NCBI GenBank assembly: GCA_964508345.1
Contig: CAZDTK010000001.1
Span: forward strand, 49,248 to 113,247
Reading direction: 5' to 3'
Length of the DNA: 64,000 nucleotides
From: an uncultured Actinomycetes bacterium
GTDB taxonomy: Bacteria; Chloroflexota; Dormibacteria; Aeolococcales; Aeolococcaceae
How positions within the stretch are numbered: position 1 is the first letter of the stretch; every line of letters starts with the position of its first letter. The notes below the pieces were generated by a model that was not told the DNA's origin, ran no database searches, and was given only the letters and a program-made list of their open reading frames with translations. Positions 4,474 through 49,294 of this stretch are shown here, in pieces. The position numbers and the translations under genes were made by a program.

Positions 4474-6696
4474 ATGACCGAATCTCCACATGAGATAGCC
4501 GCCGTCGCCGCGAGTGAGGCCACGGCCGCGGTACCCGCGGACGTCGCGGGCCCGCCGCCGCCGCCGCGGGGCCGGCTCAAGGCATACCTGGGCGCCATGC
4601 CCGGGTCGGGCAAGACCTTCGCCATGCTCCGCGAGGGACGCGACCGCCGCGACGCCGGCGAGGACGTCGTGGTCGGCTTCATCGAGACCCACGGTAGGGC
4701 GCGCACCCAGGAGGCCGTCGGCACCCTGGAGGTCCTGCCCCGGCTGAGCGTCGACTACCGCGGCACCAAGCTCTCGGAGATGGACGTGGATGCGGTGCTG
4801 GCCCGCCATCCCCAGGTGGCGCTCATCGACGAGCTGGCCCACACCAACGCCCCCGGCGTCCGCCACCACAAGCGCTGGGAGGACATCGAGGACATCCGCG
4901 ACGCCGGCATCGACGTGATCACCACCATGAACATCCAGCACCTCGAGTCGGTGAAGGACGTGGTGGAGCGAATCACCGGGATCACCGTGCACGAGACGGT
5001 GCCCGACAGCGTCCTCGACCGCGCCGACGAGGTCCAGTTCATCGACATCACCCCCGAGGCCCTCCGTAAGCGGATGCGCCACGGCAACATCTACCCGCCC
5101 GACCGGGTGGACATGGCGCTGCGCAACTTCTTCCGGCCGGGCAATCTCGGTGCGCTCCGCGAGCTGGGTCTGAGGCTGGTCGCCGAGCGCGTCGAGGGCC
5201 AGCGCGGCGGCGTCCAGGCACCTCCCGAGGACGTCCTCGCCGCCGTCGGCGGGGGGGTGTCGGCGGAGGCCCTGATCCGGCGCGGCGTCCGCCAGGCTCG
5301 CCGCCGGCGCGGCTTCTGCACCGTGGTCCACGTCCGGACCGTGGAGGACCCCGTCCCCGGGCCCGGCAGCGACGAGGGCTGGCGCCGGCTGGCCGCCGAG
5401 CTGCAGACCTCGCTGGTGGAGCCGGAGGCCACCGACATCGCCGCGGCCCTGATCGCCGTCGCCCATGATCGGGGTAGCCGCCACGTGGTGATGGGCGAGC
5501 CGCACCCGCGCGGCTTCTTCGGCCGGATGCGCAAATCCATCGTCGATCGCGTCATCGAGGGGCTGCCCGACGCCGACGTCCACGTGATCTCGCGATACTC
5601 CGCCACTCCCTACGCCCCCCAGGACCGGCCCAACCCCGACTCCCTGCTCCGCGACCTGAGCATGACCCGGCCCCGTGGCGGGCTGCGCCTCTACATGAGC
5701 TACGCGCGGGGGGCGGGCGCGACCACGCAGATGCTCGACGAGGCCCGCCGCCGCGTGGCCCGCGGCACCGACGTCGTGGTCGGAGCGGTGAGCGGTGGAG
5801 GAGCGTCGCGGCTGGGCACCCTTCCCCTGCTCGGCGGGCACGCCTCACCGGCGGCGCGGGGTGTCCTCGACGTCGAGGCGCTGATGAGCCGCAACCCCGA
5901 CGTGGTGGCGATCGACGACCTCGCCGGCGTGACCACGACCGGACGGCTGGTGGCCCACGTGCTGCCCCGGATCCGCGCCGCCGGCATCAACGTCATTGGC
6001 ACCGTCCACCTCACCGACCTGCGCAGCACGGTGAGCGTGATGGGGCCGCTGCTCAACCGCCCCAAGGAGCGTCCCATCCTGGACGACTCGTCCGTCGACC
6101 CCGCCGACGAGATCGAGCTGATCGACGTCCCGCCGGCCGAGCTCGAGGAGCGGCTGCGCCAGGGCGAGATCATGCCGCCCGCCGAGGCCATCCAGGCTCT
6201 CCAGGGCGAGTTCCGCCCCGAGGTGCTCACCGCCCTGCGCGAGCTGGCGCTGCGCCGGGTCGCCGAGCACTGCGACCGGCGCCTCATCGAGTACATGAGC
6301 ACGGCTCGCATCAACGAGCCGTGGGAAGCCCGTCCCCGGGTGCTGGTCCTGGTCCCGCCTCAACCCGGACAGGAGGCCGTCATCCGCCGTGCCGCCGCCC
6401 ACGCGGTGCGCCGGGACGACGCCCTGACCGCCGTCTCGGTCCGCCGCCGGCCGCGCAGCGACGTCGAGAAACGCATCCTCGGTGGCTACGCCACCCTCAC
6501 CCATCAGCTCGGCGGTGAGTTCGTGACCATCGACGGGCGGGACGTCGCCGCCACGGTCGCCGCCTACGCCCGCGGCCACCGGATCACCGAGATCCTGGTG
6601 ATGCGGAGCATGAGGAACAGCAGCTCCCGGACGCTGCGCCAGCTGATCCGGCTGGTTGCCAACGTCGACGTTCACGTGGTCGCGGCGACCGACTGA
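4474..6696 (+). CDS. kdpD: Soluble KdpD-like sensor: (KdpD N-terminal domain + USP) x2, no TM or kinase domain
   Basis: YLGAMPGSGKTFAML, DELAHTN, KRWEDIE, NIQHLES, FFRPGNLGALREL; second degenerate copy from LRLYMSYARGAGATTQML; ATG 4474 chosen over TTG 4396. Confidence 0.85.
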   Translation: MTESPHEIAAVAASEATAAVPADVAGPPPPPRGRLKAYLGAMPGSGKTFAMLREGRDRRDAGEDVVVGFIETHGRARTQEAVGTLEVLPRLSVDYRGTKLSEMDVDAVLARHPQVALIDELAHTNAPGVRHHKRWEDIEDIRDAGIDVITTMNIQHLESVKDVVERITGITVHETVPDSVLDRADEVQFIDITPEALRKRMRHGNIYPPDRVDMALRNFFRPGNLGALRELGLRLVAERVEGQRGGVQAPPEDVLAAVGGGVSAEALIRRGVRQARRRRGFCTVVHVRTVEDPVPGPGSDEGWRRLAAELQTSLVEPEATDIAAALIAVAHDRGSRHVVMGEPHPRGFFGRMRKSIVDRVIEGLPDADVHVISRYSATPYAPQDRPNPDSLLRDLSMTRPRGGLRLYMSYARGAGATTQMLDEARRRVARGTDVVVGAVSGGGASRLGTLPLLGGHASPAARGVLDVEALMSRNPDVVAIDDLAGVTTTGRLVAHVLPRIRAAGINVIGTVHLTDLRSTVSVMGPLLNRPKERPILDDSSVDPADEIELIDVPPAELEERLRQGEIMPPAEAIQALQGEFRPEVLTALRELALRRVAEHCDRRLIEYMSTARINEPWEARPRVLVLVPPQPGQEAVIRRAAAHAVRRDDALTAVSVRRRPRSDVEKRILGGYATLTHQLGGEFVTIDGRDVAATVAAYARGHRITEILVMRSMRNSSSRTLRQLIRLVANVDVHVVAATD

Positions 6697-6706
6697 CCCC
6701 GCTGGG

Positions 6707-7891
6707 CTAGGCCGCGGGGAGGGTGAAGGCGAAGCGCGCCCCCTCGCCCTCCTCGGAGTCCTCGATCCACACCCGGCCGGCGTGGGCCTCGACCAGACCG
6801 CGGACGATCGCCAGCCCCAGCCCGGTGCCGCTGGGCGCGGCGTGGCCATCCCCCTCCCGGGCGGCACCGTCGGGGACGCCGCGGACGAAGCGCTCGAAGA
6901 TCCGCTCGCGCTGCTCCACCGCCACGCCGGGGCCCCGGTCGATGACCCGGATGACCACCATCGAGCGCTTGCCCGGGGCGGCGGTGACCCTGATCGCCGT
7001 GCGCGCGGGCGCGTGCCGGTCGGCGTTCTGGAGGAGGTTGTCCAGGATCTGGCCGAGCCGCTCCCAGTCGGCGAGCACCTCCAGCCCGGTGGGCGGGAGG
7101 CTGATCTCCACCTTCCGGCCCACCGAGGAGAGGCGGAGCCGGCCAGCCGCCGCTTCCAGGGCTTCGCCCAGGTCGATCTCCACCGCGTTCAGGGTCAGGG
7201 CGTGGGCCTCGATCCGGGCCATGTCCAGCAGGTCGGAGACCAGCCGCTCCAGCCGCCGGGCCTCCCCGATGATCGAGTCCAGCTCGCCGCGCACCTCCTC
7301 GGGGATGCGGGGGCGCTCGAGCAGGTCGGTGGCCCCGGTCAGGATGCTGGCCAGCGGGGTGCGCAGCTCATGCGAGACGTTGGCGAGCAGGTCGGAGCGC
7401 AGCTTGTCGGCCGCCTCCAGGACTCGCACCTGCTGCTGGGTCTGAGCCAGTCGCACCGCCATGGCGGCGGCCTCCGCCTGCTCGCGCTCGAGCCGTTCCA
7501 ACTCCGCGTTGCTGCGACGCAGCTGGGAGGCAAGCCGCTCCGCCTCGAACTGGGCGCTGCGGCGTCCGGAGCCCACGCCCCCGGCGACGGCGGCGACGGC
7601 GATCAGGACGACGAGGTCCACCAGGTCGCTGGGGTCGTCGATGGTCAGGGTGTGAAGGGGGAGCACGAAGAACCAGTCGACGAGCAGGAAGCTCAGAGCG
7701 GCTCCGCCCAGAGCGGCGCGAAGCCCGCTGACCGTGCCCAGCACGGCGACCAGCGCGACGTAGACGAAGACGTAGTCCCGCGCCGTGGACGGGCCGACCA
7801 GGCTGAGCACGGCCGTGATCGCGATTGGCCCGCCGATCGCCCCCGTCACCCCGGCGATGGCCGGAAGGTGACCGCCACGGCTGCTCCGCAT
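6707..7891 (-). CDS. Sensor histidine kinase, KdpD C-terminal type (4-TM DUF4118-like + HisKA + HATPase)
   Basis: Four hydrophobic segments with FLLVDWFFVLPLHTL; SHELRTPL H-box; NLLQNA, DRGPG, GTGLGLAI, GARF. Confidence 0.9.
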   Translation of the reverse strand: MRSSRGGHLPAIAGVTGAIGGPIAITAVLSLVGPSTARDYVFVYVALVAVLGTVSGLRAALGGAALSFLLVDWFFVLPLHTLTIDDPSDLVDLVVLIAVAAVAGGVGSGRRSAQFEAERLASQLRRSNAELERLEREQAEAAAMAVRLAQTQQQVRVLEAADKLRSDLLANVSHELRTPLASILTGATDLLERPRIPEEVRGELDSIIGEARRLERLVSDLLDMARIEAHALTLNAVEIDLGEALEAAAGRLRLSSVGRKVEISLPPTGLEVLADWERLGQILDNLLQNADRHAPARTAIRVTAAPGKRSMVVIRVIDRGPGVAVEQRERIFERFVRGVPDGAAREGDGHAAPSGTGLGLAIVRGLVEAHAGRVWIEDSEEGEGARFAFTLPAA

Positions 7892-27490: not shown

Positions 27491-28096
27491 TCACAGCCAG
27501 CCCAGGCGCTCCGCGACCCGAACGGCCTCGATACGGTTGCGAGCTCCCGTCTTCTGGATGGCCGACGAGAGGTAGTTGCGCACCGTCCCCTCAGAGAGGT
27601 GGTGTCGTGTCGCGATGGTGGCGATGCTCGAGCCGTCGATGGCGGCGGCCAGAACCTCACGCTCGCGCGGTGAGAGGGGATTGGGGCCCGCGCTGAGCGC
27701 CGCGGCAGCGAGCTGGGGATCGAGGACACGCTCGCCCGCCACAGCCCGCCGGATCGAAGCCGCCAGAGCCTCGACGGGCCCGTCCTTCACCAGGAAGCCC
27801 GACGCCCCGGCCTCCATGGCACGGCGCAGGTAACCGGGGCGACCGAACGTGGTGAGGATGATGATCACGCACCCGGGCAGGCTCGCATGCAGCATCCCCG
27901 CCGCGGTGACCCCGTCGCTCCCGGGCATCTCGATGTCCAGAAGAGCCACGTCAGGCCGGGTCTCCAGGGCCAGCGAGAGCACCTGGTCGCCCGACCCGGT
28001 CTGAGCCACGACCTGCATGTCCGGCTCCAGGTTGAGGAGGGTTGCCAGGGCGCCACGGACCATCCCCTGATCCTCGGCGATGAGGATGCGGATCAC
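27491..28096 (-). CDS. NarL/DesR-family response regulator
   Basis: IAEDQGMVRGAL, LDIEMPG, LTTFGRPGYL, LuxR HTH LSEGTVRNYLS; GTGA overlap with kinase. Confidence 0.95.
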   Translation of the reverse strand: MIRILIAEDQGMVRGALATLLNLEPDMQVVAQTGSGDQVLSLALETRPDVALLDIEMPGSDGVTAAGMLHASLPGCVIIILTTFGRPGYLRRAMEAGASGFLVKDGPVEALAASIRRAVAGERVLDPQLAAAALSAGPNPLSPREREVLAAAIDGSSIATIATRHHLSEGTVRNYLSSAIQKTGARNRIEAVRVAERLGWL

Positions 28097-29361: not shown

Positions 29362-29719
29362 CGGCGGCATCGTAACAGGGGGTGGACTCCCACGCTCCGA
29401 GAGGGCCCCGGCGTGCTCGACCCTCGACCGGTCGACGTCGCTGTGCTTGGCGCAGACGGCCCAAACCAGCACACCTCCGTGCAGCGCGTAGTCGGTGGCC
29501 TCCTCGGAGCAGCCGGCGACCCCGCAGACGATCATGCCTTCCTCTGCGACGCTGCGCTCCGATGATCGCGGGTCTCGTCGTTCTCAGCAGCGCATGGGAG
29601 AACGCCTCCCACACGATCTCGAGGCGTCCCGCTCGGCGTCATGCCCTGGTCAACCCTGCGCGCGTCGCGCCCCCCGCATGTCGGATGTCGACGTCGAGAA
29701 CGTAGCTGCCAGCTGAGGC

Positions 29720-29854
29720 CTAGCTGCCCGACGCCTTGGTGCGTGCGTAGGCAGCGCGCAGGCTCGCCCAGCCTCTCCAAATCAAGCCGATCCCGGCCAG
29801 GAGCACGCCGAGCCCGATCGGGGAACCCCAGCCCAGCAGAGTGGTCCAGTCCAT
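29720..29854 (-). CDS. Small membrane peptide, 44 aa (not in supplied ORF track)
   Basis: MDWTTLLGWGSPIGLGVLLAGIGLIWRGWASLRAAYARTKASGS; GGAGGT SD 9 nt upstream; 38 of 44 codons end in G/C. Confidence 0.75.
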   Translation of the reverse strand: MDWTTLLGWGSPIGLGVLLAGIGLIWRGWASLRAAYARTKASGS

Positions 29855-30016
29855 GTCAAACCCACCTCCCAGTAAACGTTTCTCGGCCGTTGGCAAAGTG
29901 TCGCGGTAAGCCCCGGCTCAACTGGTCCGCCGCCACCCCGACGGTGCGCGGCCGACCATGTCCCGAGCCTAGGGTTTCCTGGCTCCGACCTGTCAGTGGC
30001 GCAGCTCCGGAAGTCG

Positions 30017-30034
30017 CGGTGACATTTGTCACCG
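30017..30034. promoter_or_regulatory. Perfect palindrome CGGTGACA-TT-TGTCACCG, probable response-regulator box
   Basis: 8-bp inverted repeat with 2-bp spacer; half-site CTGACA at 29996-29991 and -10 TAGGCT at 29971-29966 on the minus strand. Confidence 0.65.
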
Positions 30035-30187
30035 TGAGCGTGCGCTGCAGCGCTCAGCGGTGTCTCCTGCCCTTGCGCGCGGGGCGCTCCGCGGCGGCCC
30101 GAGTGGAGCGCAGGGTCGACCGCCAACAGGACAGGATGCCGACCGTGGCACGGCCGGCCCTGCAGGCGGTCGTGACGAAGTCCAAAG

Positions 30188-30259
30188 TACCCCCGGCCGG
30201 AATCGAACCAGCGCACAAGGTTTAGGAAACCTCTGCTCTATCCACTGAGCTACGGGGGC
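30188..30259 (-). tRNA. tRNA-Arg(CCT)
   Basis: GCCCCCGTAGCTCAGTGGATAGAGC, anticodon arm GAGGT-TTCCTAA-ACCTT, GGTTCGATTCC; G1:U72; CCA not encoded. Confidence 0.96.
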
Positions 30260-31977: not shown

Positions 31978-32163
31978 TGAGCCTCTCCCCGGGTCTGCGG
32001 ATTCAAGGTCGCGGCGGCGGCCGGACGGGACGAGGCGTGAGCCTACCCCAGCGGGACCTGGCCCTGCAGGACCGCCCGCGGCCGGGGCGATCCCCGCGCC
32101 GGCACGTCGCCGGCCAGCCATGAGGAGGCCGGCGCCCGCGAGTCATGAGGGAGGCGGCGCCCG

Positions 32164-32238
32164 TCGGGAAGGCGAGATTCGAACTCGCGACCTCACGGTC
32201 CCGAACCGTGCACTCTAACCTGGCTGAGCTACTTCCCG
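32164..32238 (-). tRNA. tRNA-Pro(CGG)
   Basis: CGGGAAGTAGCTCAGC, anticodon arm CACGG-TTCGGGA-CCGTG, GTTCGAATC; C1:G72, A73; CCA not encoded. Confidence 0.96.
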
Positions 32239-47044: not shown

Positions 47045-49294
47045 ATGATCGTCGCGGTCCTCTCGCCCATTGCGATGGTTGCGCTGGCCGGGACCGCATT
47101 CACCCTCAGTGGGCTGAGGTGGCGCCGCCTGGTCGCGCTGATGCGCCTCTCCCGCCGCCCCGACCCCCGTGGCGGCGACATCCGCGGACGCGCGCGCGCC
47201 TTCCTCGCCAACGTCCTGGGCCAGGGACGCCTGCTCCGCTGGCCCTATGCGGGCCTGCTCCACGCGCTCATCTTCTGGGGTTTCCTGGTGCTGCTCACCG
47301 CCATCGCCCAGGCGATCGTCGAAGCCCTGGTCGTCGGTGTGAGGCTGTACACCATCCCCGTCGTGGCGCCGGTGGTGGCCCATCTGCAGGACCTCTTCTG
47401 CGTCCTGGCGCTGACCGGGGTGCTGCTGGCGCTGGTCAACCGGCTGGTGGTCAGGCCGATCCGCTTCCGCGGCAGTCACACCGGCGACGCCCTGCTCATC
47501 CTGGGCTGGATCGCCGCGCTGCTCGTCTGCATGGAGCTGAACTACGCGACGCTGATCGCCGAGCACTCTCCCGAAGCGCTGGCCGCCGACCGGCCCTTCG
47601 CGGCAGCGCTCAGCCGCCTGTTCACGCCGCTCGGCAGTGACAGTCAGGCGCTGGTCGCATTCCACGGCGTGTTCTTCTGGGCGCACCTCTGCCTGGTCTT
47701 CGGGTTCCTCGTCTACCTCGGTTACAGCAAGCATCTGCACATCATCACCGCGCCCTTCAACGTCGTCCTCGCCGAACGCGGCCCCCGGGGCCGGCTCCGT
47801 CCCATCGACATCGACGCGGTGATGTCGGCCGCCGACGAGCGCGACCAGCACTTCGGCGCGGGCGCCCTCGAGCACTTCTCGTGGAAGGACGTGCTCGACC
47901 TCTACACCTGCACCGAATGCGGGCGCTGCCAGTCCCACTGCCCCGCCTACCTGACCGGGAAGGTGCTCTCGCCCAAGACCCTGATCACCGACCTGCGCGA
48001 CGGCTCCTACGAGCGGCTCAAGGGCGGCTACGCCGCCACCCAGCACAGCGCCCATGTCGTCCAGGGGGGCGACGCCGGCGGGAGCCCCGGCCCGGATGGT
48101 GGCGCGATGTGGGCCACCGGCGACGGCGATCGGGGAGCGGTCCATGGCCTCCCGGGCAGCTTCCAGCCCTCCTGGCTCAGCCCCGAGCGGGTGAGCGCGG
48201 CGGTGGCGGCGAACGGCGGCGAGCGCCCCCTGATCGGCGGCCTCATCGACGAGGAGACGCTCTGGGCCTGCACCACCTGCGGCGCGTGCATGGACCAGTG
48301 CCCGGTCTTTATCGAGCACGTCCCCAAGATCGTCGAGATGCGCCGCCATCTCGTGCTCGACGAGTCCCGGATGCCCCGCCAGGCCGAGACCGCGCTGCGC
48401 GCCATCGAGAACGTGGCCAACCCCTACGGGATCTCCCCGCAGAGCCGGGCCGACTGGGCGGCCGGGCTCGGGGTGCCGCTCATCTCCGAGCGGCCCGACG
48501 CCGAGTACCTCTACTGGGTCGGCTGCGCGGTCGCCTACGACGAGCGCGCGCGCAGCATCGCCACCGCCCTGGCTGCCATCCTCCAGGCCGCCGGTGTCGA
48601 CTTCGCCATCCTGGGCAACGAGGAGCGGTGCACCGGCGACCCGGCGCGGCGGATCGGCAACGAGTATCTCTTCCAGGAGCGGGCCCGCCAGAACATCGAG
48701 GTGCTGGGCGGGCACGGCATCCGCCGGATCGTCACCAGCTGTCCTCATTGTTTCAACACCATCGCCAACGAGTACCCCGACCTCGGCGGCAACTACGAGG
48801 TCATCCATCATTCCGTGCTCATCGAGCGGCTGATCACAGAGGGCAGGATCGTTCTGGAGAGGCCGATCGACGAGACGGTCACGTATCACGATTCCTGCTA
48901 CCTGGGGCGCTGGAACGGCGTCTTCGCGCCACCTCGCGACATCCTGGAGCGCATCCCCGGGATGCGCCTGGTGGAGATGAAGCGCAGCCGCCGCGAGGGG
49001 ATGTGCTGCGGCGCCGGTGGGGGCCGGATGTGGATGGAGGAGGGTCGACCGCGCGTCAACCACCGGCGTCTCGATCAGGCCATGGAGACCGAGGCGACCC
49101 GGGTGGCCACGGCCTGCCCCTTCTGCCTCACCATGTTCGACGAGGGGATCGCCGCGCGGCAGGCGGGAGACCGGGTCGCCGTGGACGACATCGCCGTCTA
49201 TGTGGCCCGTTCGATGCGGCTGCCCGCCACCGCCGACCCGACCACTGTGCGATCACCCACGGCCGGGTTGACACCCGGAGAGGGGGAAGGGTAG
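47045..49294 (+). CDS. Membrane Fe-S oxidoreductase (FadF/HdrD-like: TM domain + 2x 4Fe-4S + 2x CCG)
   Basis: YSKHLHI, CTECGRCQSHCP, CTTCGACMDQCP, YWVGC, CTGD, SCPHCF, HDSCY, CCGAGGG, ACPFC. Confidence 0.92.
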   Translation: MIVAVLSPIAMVALAGTAFTLSGLRWRRLVALMRLSRRPDPRGGDIRGRARAFLANVLGQGRLLRWPYAGLLHALIFWGFLVLLTAIAQAIVEALVVGVRLYTIPVVAPVVAHLQDLFCVLALTGVLLALVNRLVVRPIRFRGSHTGDALLILGWIAALLVCMELNYATLIAEHSPEALAADRPFAAALSRLFTPLGSDSQALVAFHGVFFWAHLCLVFGFLVYLGYSKHLHIITAPFNVVLAERGPRGRLRPIDIDAVMSAADERDQHFGAGALEHFSWKDVLDLYTCTECGRCQSHCPAYLTGKVLSPKTLITDLRDGSYERLKGGYAATQHSAHVVQGGDAGGSPGPDGGAMWATGDGDRGAVHGLPGSFQPSWLSPERVSAAVAANGGERPLIGGLIDEETLWACTTCGACMDQCPVFIEHVPKIVEMRRHLVLDESRMPRQAETALRAIENVANPYGISPQSRADWAAGLGVPLISERPDAEYLYWVGCAVAYDERARSIATALAAILQAAGVDFAILGNEERCTGDPARRIGNEYLFQERARQNIEVLGGHGIRRIVTSCPHCFNTIANEYPDLGGNYEVIHHSVLIERLITEGRIVLERPIDETVTYHDSCYLGRWNGVFAPPRDILERIPGMRLVEMKRSRREGMCCGAGGGRMWMEEGRPRVNHRRLDQAMETEATRVATACPFCLTMFDEGIAARQAGDRVAVDDIAVYVARSMRLPATADPTTVRSPTAGLTPGEGEG

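Follow-up and report, generated by a model that had tools for sequence, protein, structure and literature searches.

The LnrJK-LnrLMN system of Bacillus subtilis combines a kinase of the HisKA_3 type, LnrJ, with an ATP-binding cassette (ABC) transporter of the ABC-2 type, LnrLMN. LnrJK signals to this transporter alone and is also inhibited by it (PMC7472640), and ChrSA activates the adjacent hrtBA genes (PMC3353115). Here we describe a locus related to this kind of system on the minus strand of a 64,000-nucleotide stretch of DNA (the window; positions 49,248 to 113,247 of contig CAZDTK010000001.1, assembly GCA_964508345.1) from an uncultured bacterium. A gene encoding a 44-amino-acid membrane peptide is here followed by the genes of a DesK-like histidine kinase and a NarL/LuxR-type response regulator. 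By sequence comparison, this peptide gene occupies the place that ABC transporter genes hold in sister loci, behind a homologous putative operator and promoter.

As in systems of the LnrJK-LnrLMN and ChrSA-HrtBA kind, the window encodes a multi-helix membrane kinase that combines a HisKA_3 with an HATPase_c domain, together with a regulator of the NarL type. The nearest homologs of the kinase are encoded right after the genes of an ABC ATPase and an ABC-2 permease. The domain composition of an ABC-2-coupled HisKA_3/NarL module is thus found in the window, but adjacent ABC genes are not. Their place is taken by the peptide gene, preceded by about 105 nucleotides (nt) of leader, and a Cys/His extension has been added at the N-terminus of the kinase. 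The catalytic core of the kinase is of the DesK type, DesK of B. subtilis being its best solved relative (E = 1e-31), and automated annotation calls relatives of the window kinase "DesK". However, this match covers only residues 272-467, the sensor region is not detectably DesK-like, and the window kinase has an extra cytoplasmic N-terminal extension. An earlier note on this DNA, made from the sequence alone, had pointed out that neither a desaturase nor an ABC transporter, the usual targets of DesK/DesR-type systems, is present, and indeed neither was found among the window neighbours scanned.

A small membrane protein that acts on a kinase is known from MgrB, which has an N-in/C-out topology and extracytoplasmic cysteines required for function. 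MgrB is a 47-amino-acid membrane feedback inhibitor of PhoQ, and mgrB is controlled by its associated two-component system (PMC2789325). The window peptide resembles it in having a single helix and a similar size. However, there is no sequence similarity between the two and the Pfam MgrB model does not match the window peptide, which therefore falls outside that family. The window peptide has no cysteine, its charge bias predicts the opposite orientation (N-out/C-in), and its family occurs widely without a kinase. While mgrB is unlinked to phoPQ, the window peptide gene appears to come first in an operon with the kinase gene.

The LiaF/VraT-type accessory proteins are multi-helix proteins of about 240 amino acids with a conserved LiaF-like C-terminal domain, and the LiaS and VraS kinases have two membrane helices. 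In vraUTSR of Staphylococcus aureus the operon promoter is bound by its own regulator (PMC9380581). Both in vraUTSR and in liaIH-liaGFSR of B. subtilis the gene of a small or accessory membrane protein is found upstream of kinase and regulator genes in one operon, which is also the likely arrangement in the window, and VraS gives a weak match to the ATPase domain of the window kinase. The window locus differs from these systems by encoding no LiaF- or VraT-like protein, as the 44-amino-acid peptide has one helix and no Pfam match, and by a kinase with five to six predicted membrane helices.

The earlier note had described the peptide gene as an unlisted minus-strand open reading frame (ORF) with a Shine-Dalgarno site and a strong GC bias at the third codon position, lying between a palindrome and the co-oriented kinase and regulator genes. 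All of these features are present. The GC content at codon positions 1, 2, and 3 is 0.56, 0.64, and 0.87, and no comparable periodicity is seen in the flanking non-coding stretches. "Unlisted" applies to the genome of the window, where the gene apparently has not been called, but not to other assemblies: a protein search gave three close homologs, of which two have already been called as 44-amino-acid genes (P0002 and P0003). The DNA is 72% GC and 100 ORFs of at least 30 amino acids are found within the surrounding 10 kb, so the length of the ORF is by itself uninformative and the comparative evidence is decisive.

Compared with the copy in the related locus L004 the gene displays 14 nucleotide differences, of which 14 are synonymous and none non-synonymous, leaving the peptide 100% identical; the probability of this pattern under neutrality is about 1e-8. 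Codons 1-33 of five distinct sequences contain 15 variable sites, 13 of them at the third codon position, one at the first, and one at the second. The synonymous pattern is limited to the frame of the peptide, since the same changes are mostly non-synonymous or create stop codons in the other five frames, and this rules out antisense or other-frame coding as the cause of the conservation. The ratio of synonymous to non-synonymous changes, which had been named as a check, thus comes out in favour of the gene. A search of 5.8 billion proteins further gave homologs of the peptide down to E = 1e-18. Since the synonymous-only pattern in one frame and the homologs far exceed what is expected by chance, the 44-codon ORF is, on this comparative evidence, a real gene under strong purifying selection at the protein level. 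Spurious ORFs of such a size are plentiful in DNA with 72% GC, and one could therefore think of a chance ORF, or of a cis-acting leader ORF whose amino-acid sequence is irrelevant. The frame-specific excess of synonymous changes, and the fact that distant low-GC lineages retain the same N-terminal signature, leave this explanation with hardly any probability, and it is effectively refuted.

Among the relatives used for comparison (L001-L006), L004 and L005 stem from metagenome-assembled genomes (MAGs) labelled "uncultured Chloroflexia bacterium" and L006 from a metagenome. A kinase-based search for more loci gave two in a genome scan and one in a metagenome scan, and the clade is thus rare. 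In each relative fetched that has an orthologous kinase, amounting to five distinct loci, the peptide ORF immediately precedes the kinase and regulator genes, which bears out the conservation and synteny on which the earlier note had made its proposal depend. The peptide gene is intact even in L001. There, at 6140-7010, about 670 nt that comprise the entire membrane part are missing from the kinase gene, which also carries a frameshift in the dimerisation domain, while the peptide and regulator genes are intact; this broken kinase is either a true pseudogene or a long-read assembly artefact.

The DNA homology between the window and the five relatives begins with the palindrome, at its first base (30031), and ends with the stop codon of the regulator gene (around 27488). 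The flanks beyond are unrelated, and the flanks of the relatives are not found elsewhere in the window. In L001-L006, genes for an FAD-monooxygenase, a type III polyketide synthase (PKS), and ICMT are found upstream and GAF and RCC1-repeat genes downstream, while the window has tRNA-Arg and DUF3224 upstream and DJ-1/PfpI and GNAT downstream. Because the homology ends sharply at the palindrome and at the regulator stop while the flanks differ, the operator, promoter, leader, peptide, kinase, and regulator together make up a discrete ~2.54-kb unit, which is found in more than one genomic context. Neither ABC ATPase nor ABC-2 permease genes are found in this module in the window or in L001-L006.

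The palindrome is invariant in five related loci and forms the exact 5' edge of the module. The other invariant elements are a CCACT[AG]AC block, a TAGGCT box 47-48 nt past the palindrome, and the Shine-Dalgarno site, where GAGG[TA]GGG is kept in all loci compared. Within the block, the -35-like region is kept as CACT[AG]A in all loci, and in the window a 19-nt spacer separates the -35-like CTGACA from the -10-like box. This box reads TAGGCT, TAGGGT, or TACGCT, and its spacing to the palindrome is kept in peptide-linked as well as ABC-linked loci. Transcription may be assumed to start 6-7 nt past the -10 box, which agrees with the ATG that stands there in the ABC-linked loci, and the palindrome would then be centred about 65 nt 5' of the transcription start. 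We infer that the palindrome is the operator of the co-encoded NarL-type regulator, because the kinase-regulator pair is the sole partner that it keeps across all contexts. A second copy that could mark a further operator (regulon) site is not found in the window at two or fewer mismatches.

The leader between the putative transcription start and the peptide gene contains an upstream ORF that varies in frame and length (13, 33, 34, and 78 amino acids) and is missing in L006, and it was therefore rejected as a conserved coding unit. An ATG at 29957-29959 (minus strand), 6-7 nt past the -10 box, persists in most peptide-linked loci, and in L001 (5899-6135) the peptide is read in the frame of the leader ATG, which opens an ORF of 78 amino acids. 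No consensus fold of the leader was supported by RNAalifold, where the covariation term was positive (penalising) and many pairs were broken, and at E <= 1 Rfam matched only the two tRNAs and no known RNA element in the leader. The gap between the peptide and kinase genes is 184 nt in the window, 43 nt in L002 and L005, and 85 nt in L004. A scan of the window spacer detected neither a terminator-like site nor a promoter; the spacer folds no better than shuffled sequences (z = +0.93) and has no Rfam match. An attenuator or terminator in the spacer was thus rejected, as no terminator-like site was detected and the folding energy is ordinary, and for the same reasons co-transcription of the peptide with the kinase and regulator is plausible.

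The sensor region of the kinase has very few homologs among 5.8 billion proteins. The nearest kinase homologs outside the clade (P0008, P0009, and P0011, with 62, 54, and 42% identity) do not contain the first ~85 residues of the window kinase, and their genes directly follow those of an ABC ATPase (ABC_tran) and an ABC-2 permease (ABC2_membrane) in L007, L008/9, and L011. The promoters of these sister systems were compared for L007 and L008/9, where the contig includes the upstream region. Upstream of the ABC genes L007 displays ATGACAGATGTCAT, 47 nt, TAGGCT, 7 nt, and ATG, and L008 displays ATGACGGATGTCAC, 48 nt, TACGCT, 7 nt, and ATG. Both also contain TTCCGGAG-like and CTCACTA blocks, as does the window, and the palindrome consensus common to the window clade, L007, and L008 is TGAC[AG][AG]ATGTCA. 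The regulators of L007 and L008 are 81-83% identical to that of the window, and their recognition helix, GTVRNYLSSAIQKTG, is identical. The ATG 6-7 nt past the -10 box suggests that the ABC mRNA of these loci is leaderless. In L008 (2157-2232) the ABC ATPase gene has its called start (2164) inside the palindromic operator; the true start is probably the ATG at 2230, 7 nt past TACGCT, and the deposited call would be about 22 codons too long.

The ancestral order was, judging from these comparisons, most probably operator/promoter, ABC ATPase, ABC-2 permease, kinase, and regulator, as is usual for systems of this kind. In the window clade the place of the transporter is now held by one member of a micro-protein family that existed before and is autonomous, and the kinase has gained its N-terminal Cys/His extension.

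This micro-protein family is widespread. A profile search of 1.84 billion cluster representatives (50% clustering) gave eight other proteins at E <= 1e-3, of which seven have 30-46 amino acids and the peptide signature, while the eighth, P0016 (640 amino acids), aligns solely via an internal Gly-rich repeat. With a second profile that included the small homologs, 1,351 proteins were found at E <= 10, and the best 120 of these all have E <= 1.1e-8 and 36-69 amino acids, so that at least 120 clusters belong to the family at this level. The family signature is M-[DN]-W-x3-[LF]-[GSA]-W-G-S-P-[IV]-G-[LI]-G, and the window peptide carries MDWTTLLGWGSPIGLG. W9, S11, P12, and G14 are invariant across 50 members, and in the members examined a hydrophobic helix comes next after the signature, and then a tail rich in Lys and Arg. 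The window peptide agrees with the family both in length and signature and in its one helix with a basic tail. Its hydrophobic core comprises residues 9-25. With an N-terminal charge of -1 and a charge of +4 in the C-terminal tail, it is predicted to be oriented N-out/C-in. An AlphaFold2 model based on 50 sequences (mean predicted local distance difference test score, pLDDT, 81.7) displays a helix at 3-7, a break at 8-11 (GWGS), and a helix from Pro12 to residue 43, so that the single membrane helix proposed earlier is also what is predicted here. The named sources of the family are MAGs of Saccharimonadales and Dehalococcoidales and marine-sediment metagenomes. The earlier note had put the module forward as a candidate for an undescribed one, and for the peptide this stands: no Pfam or NCBIfam model matches the peptide or the family, a search with the peptide and 49 of its relatives gave no consistent Pfam match at E <= 1, and the signature motif was absent from all 8.3 million papers searched.

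Outside the clade, none of eight independent contexts of the family gene (L012, L013-15, L016-18, L019, L020, L021, and L022) adjoins a HisKA_3 kinase. The gene often appears to be monocistronic there, since genes on the opposite strand often flank it. That the family is widespread without kinase linkage argues for a basic activity of the peptide that is independent of the window kinase.

The contexts of the family have some features of their own. In L012 (labelled Saccharimonadales), L019, L021, and L013 the family genes are found within a few kb of Sua5/YciO/YrdC, VKOR, DUF1295, and HhH-GPD genes; these recurring neighbours probably reflect shared synteny of related genomes and not a functional link. 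In L013-L015 (3501-4261), the gene of P0103, a family member present on 21 contigs, has a divergent P-type cation ATPase gene on one side and a convergent gene for a stand-alone receiver-domain protein on the other. A PAS-HisKA kinase is encoded 2.5 kb from P0103, and this is the sole context of the eight checked outside the clade with signalling genes nearby.

The explanation that we favour, and hold to be moderately probable, sees the peptide as the locally controlled output of an operon that regulates itself, with a membrane activity of its own for which the kinase is not needed. The multi-helix kinase would be activated by a signal from the membrane or envelope, and the phosphorylated regulator would bind the palindrome centred near -65. 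Transcription of the operon would then rise, and the peptide would be made as output together with more kinase and regulator. Finally, the peptide would act in the membrane by its kinase-independent activity, which is proposed because the family is stand-alone elsewhere. The regulated output is supported by the peptide gene taking the place of the ABC genes behind the probable operator; the earlier note had proposed the peptide as output of the system, and finding the same palindrome ahead of the ABC genes in L007 and L008/9 lends this comparative support. The peptide gene of L001, intact beside a deleted and frameshifted kinase, also counts for autonomy of the peptide, if the assembly is correct. 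Several points weigh against this explanation. The broken kinase of L001 could be an assembly artefact, and the clade is narrow, with six loci and five distinct peptide-gene sequences. A promoter scan with the Escherichia coli consensus called no promoter, and the hexamers are weak by that consensus. The ~141 nt of extra spacer in the window could hold an internal promoter or uncouple the peptide from the kinase. The palindrome could also serve autoregulation of the kinase and regulator alone, with the peptide as a passenger.

Alternatively, the peptide could serve the kinase as a dedicated accessory, being a membrane-helix partner, co-sensor, or feedback inhibitor that has inherited the modulatory role of the ABC transporter. 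The earlier note had likewise thought of a feedback modulator in the manner of MgrB, but the missing cysteines, the opposite predicted topology, and the lack of sequence similarity to MgrB give this form no support. By analogy there are precedents for this in LnrLMN damping LnrJK (PMC7472640) and in MgrB inhibiting PhoQ (PMC2789325). The peptide gene is found in the exact position of the ABC genes, within the clade it is linked to the kinase without exception, and its arrival coincides with the Cys/His extension of the kinase. The peptide is moreover 100% conserved between the window and L004, where the kinase is just 77% identical, and its Gly-rich membrane helix (G10, G14, G16, G21, and G23) suits helix-helix packing. 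However, the family is widespread without an adjacent kinase, and the signature residues are alike in kinase-linked and stand-alone members, so that no kinase-specific adaptation is visible. If the assembly is correct, the peptide gene has also stayed intact in L001 although the membrane region of the kinase is missing. We therefore regard a kinase accessory as rather unlikely, though with a real chance of being right. A more specific form, in which the peptide is a minimal stand-in for the transporter whose Gly-rich helix docks on the membrane bundle of the kinase and gates its activity, is to be considered unlikely outright. If it is true that the peptide gates the kinase, the locus would be a new three-component system of peptide, kinase, and regulator, born of the exchange of an ABC-2 transporter for a micro-protein, and by extension the MDW-GWGSPIG family would be a general, unnoticed class of micro-protein modulators of membrane proteins.

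The opposite view, that the peptide gene is a mere neighbour encoding a housekeeping micro-protein with its own regulation, while the palindrome serves another regulator or only the kinase and regulator, is in line with the typically monocistronic family members elsewhere that are unlinked to kinases, and with the varying spacer to the kinase (43 to 184 nt). The only conserved promoter-like region of the module is, however, found upstream of the peptide gene, and the homology begins exactly at the palindrome. The flanks differ from context to context (tRNA-Arg, FAD monooxygenase, purD, and another ABC pair), with the kinase-regulator pair as the only common partner of the palindrome, and the spacer contains no detected terminator or promoter. 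This makes a mere neighbour improbable. Lastly, the ORF could be a relic of the last membrane helix of a former ABC-2 permease gene. The position immediately 5' of the kinase gene would fit, and weak BLASTP matches (E 0.1-0.2, four sequences) connect the peptide to the C-terminal helix of permeases, with LGW and a basic tail. A profile-profile comparison was null, though (probability 0.05%, E = 0.8), the highly significant homologs are found in an independent family of small proteins instead, and the peptide gene comes with a Shine-Dalgarno site of its own and encodes a conserved Met-Asp-Trp at the N-terminus. A relic is thus extremely improbable, and, with weak BLASTP matches alone to set against the null comparison, the candidate was rejected as effectively refuted.

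Two-component operons that include a small membrane protein have precedents; neither the peptide family nor the clean exchange of a transporter for a peptide behind a conserved operator was found in the family libraries and literature searched. The family represents a conserved and widely distributed group of membrane proteins of about 40 amino acids without a Pfam or NCBIfam model, and gene callers miss its members in places. The sister architectures amount to a natural experiment, since operator, promoter, kinase core, and regulator are the same while the first cistron and the kinase extension differ, and the pair asks what the "target" gene contributes to signalling in systems of the LnrJK-LnrLMN type. 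The consensus of the palindrome is further a concrete candidate operator for this subfamily of regulators. The features of the locus are collected in Table 1.

Table 1. Features of the peptide-kinase-regulator locus and the nearby tRNA genes (positions in the window).
Feature	Position	Strand	Remarks
NarL/LuxR-type response regulator	27491..28096	-	Response_reg and GerE (Pfam); GTG start overlaps kinase stop codon by 4 nt
DesK-like membrane histidine kinase, 480 amino acids	28093..29535	-	HisKA_3 and HATPase_c (Pfam); 5-6 predicted membrane helices
Peptide-kinase spacer, 184 nt	29536..29719	-	~141 nt (roughly 29567-29707) are a window-specific insertion
Gene of 44-amino-acid single-helix membrane protein	29720..29854	-	MDWxxxLGWGSPIG family; translation MDWTTLLGWGSPIGLGVLLAGIGLIWRGWASLRAAYARTKASGS; predicted N-out/C-in
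Shine-Dalgarno site GGAGGTG	29863-29869	-	8 nt ahead of peptide ATG; read from sequence
Leader, ~105 nt, putative transcription start to peptide ATG	29855..29959	-	Moderately conserved; holds short upstream ORF MVGRAPSGWRRTS
-10-like hexamer TAGGCT	29966..29971	-	Putative; TANNNT type
-35-like hexamer CTGACA	29991..29996	-	Putative; inside conserved CCACTGAC block
Palindromic operator GGTGACAAATGTCACC	30018..30033	-	Probable site of NarL-type regulator; core TGACAAATGTCA at 30020-30031
tRNA-Arg(CCT)	30187-30259	-	~155 nt past 5' edge of module
tRNA-Pro(CGG)	32163-32238	-	2 kb beyond tRNA-Arg

The Pfam assignments have E-values of 2e-18 (HisKA_3) and 5e-8 (HATPase_c) for the kinase, and of 2e-21 (Response_reg) and 4e-13 (GerE) for the regulator. 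The AlphaFold2 model of the kinase rests on a shallow alignment (mean pLDDT 63.6, below 50 for the N-terminal 109 residues) and serves for counting helices only; in it the last membrane helix is continuous with the dimerisation helix. Residues 1-55 (29370-29535, minus strand), which start MIVCGVAGCS...LVWAVCAKH, are modelled with a confidence below 50. Cys4, Cys9, Cys28, and His31 of this extension are invariant in all peptide-linked kinases, while the ABC-linked kinases do not have the extension. The pattern of these four residues resembles a small zinc-binding motif, which is a likeness in sequence, and after the extension comes a low-complexity linker that is in frame and variable. In the database, the window kinase (P0005, 425 amino acids) begins at Met56, so the extension is apparently unannotated in the source genome.

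The immediate neighbours of the module in the window are tRNA-Arg, DUF3224, patatin, DJ-1/PfpI, and GNAT genes. As its flanks are wholly unlike those of the relatives, the module may have relocated beside a tRNA gene.

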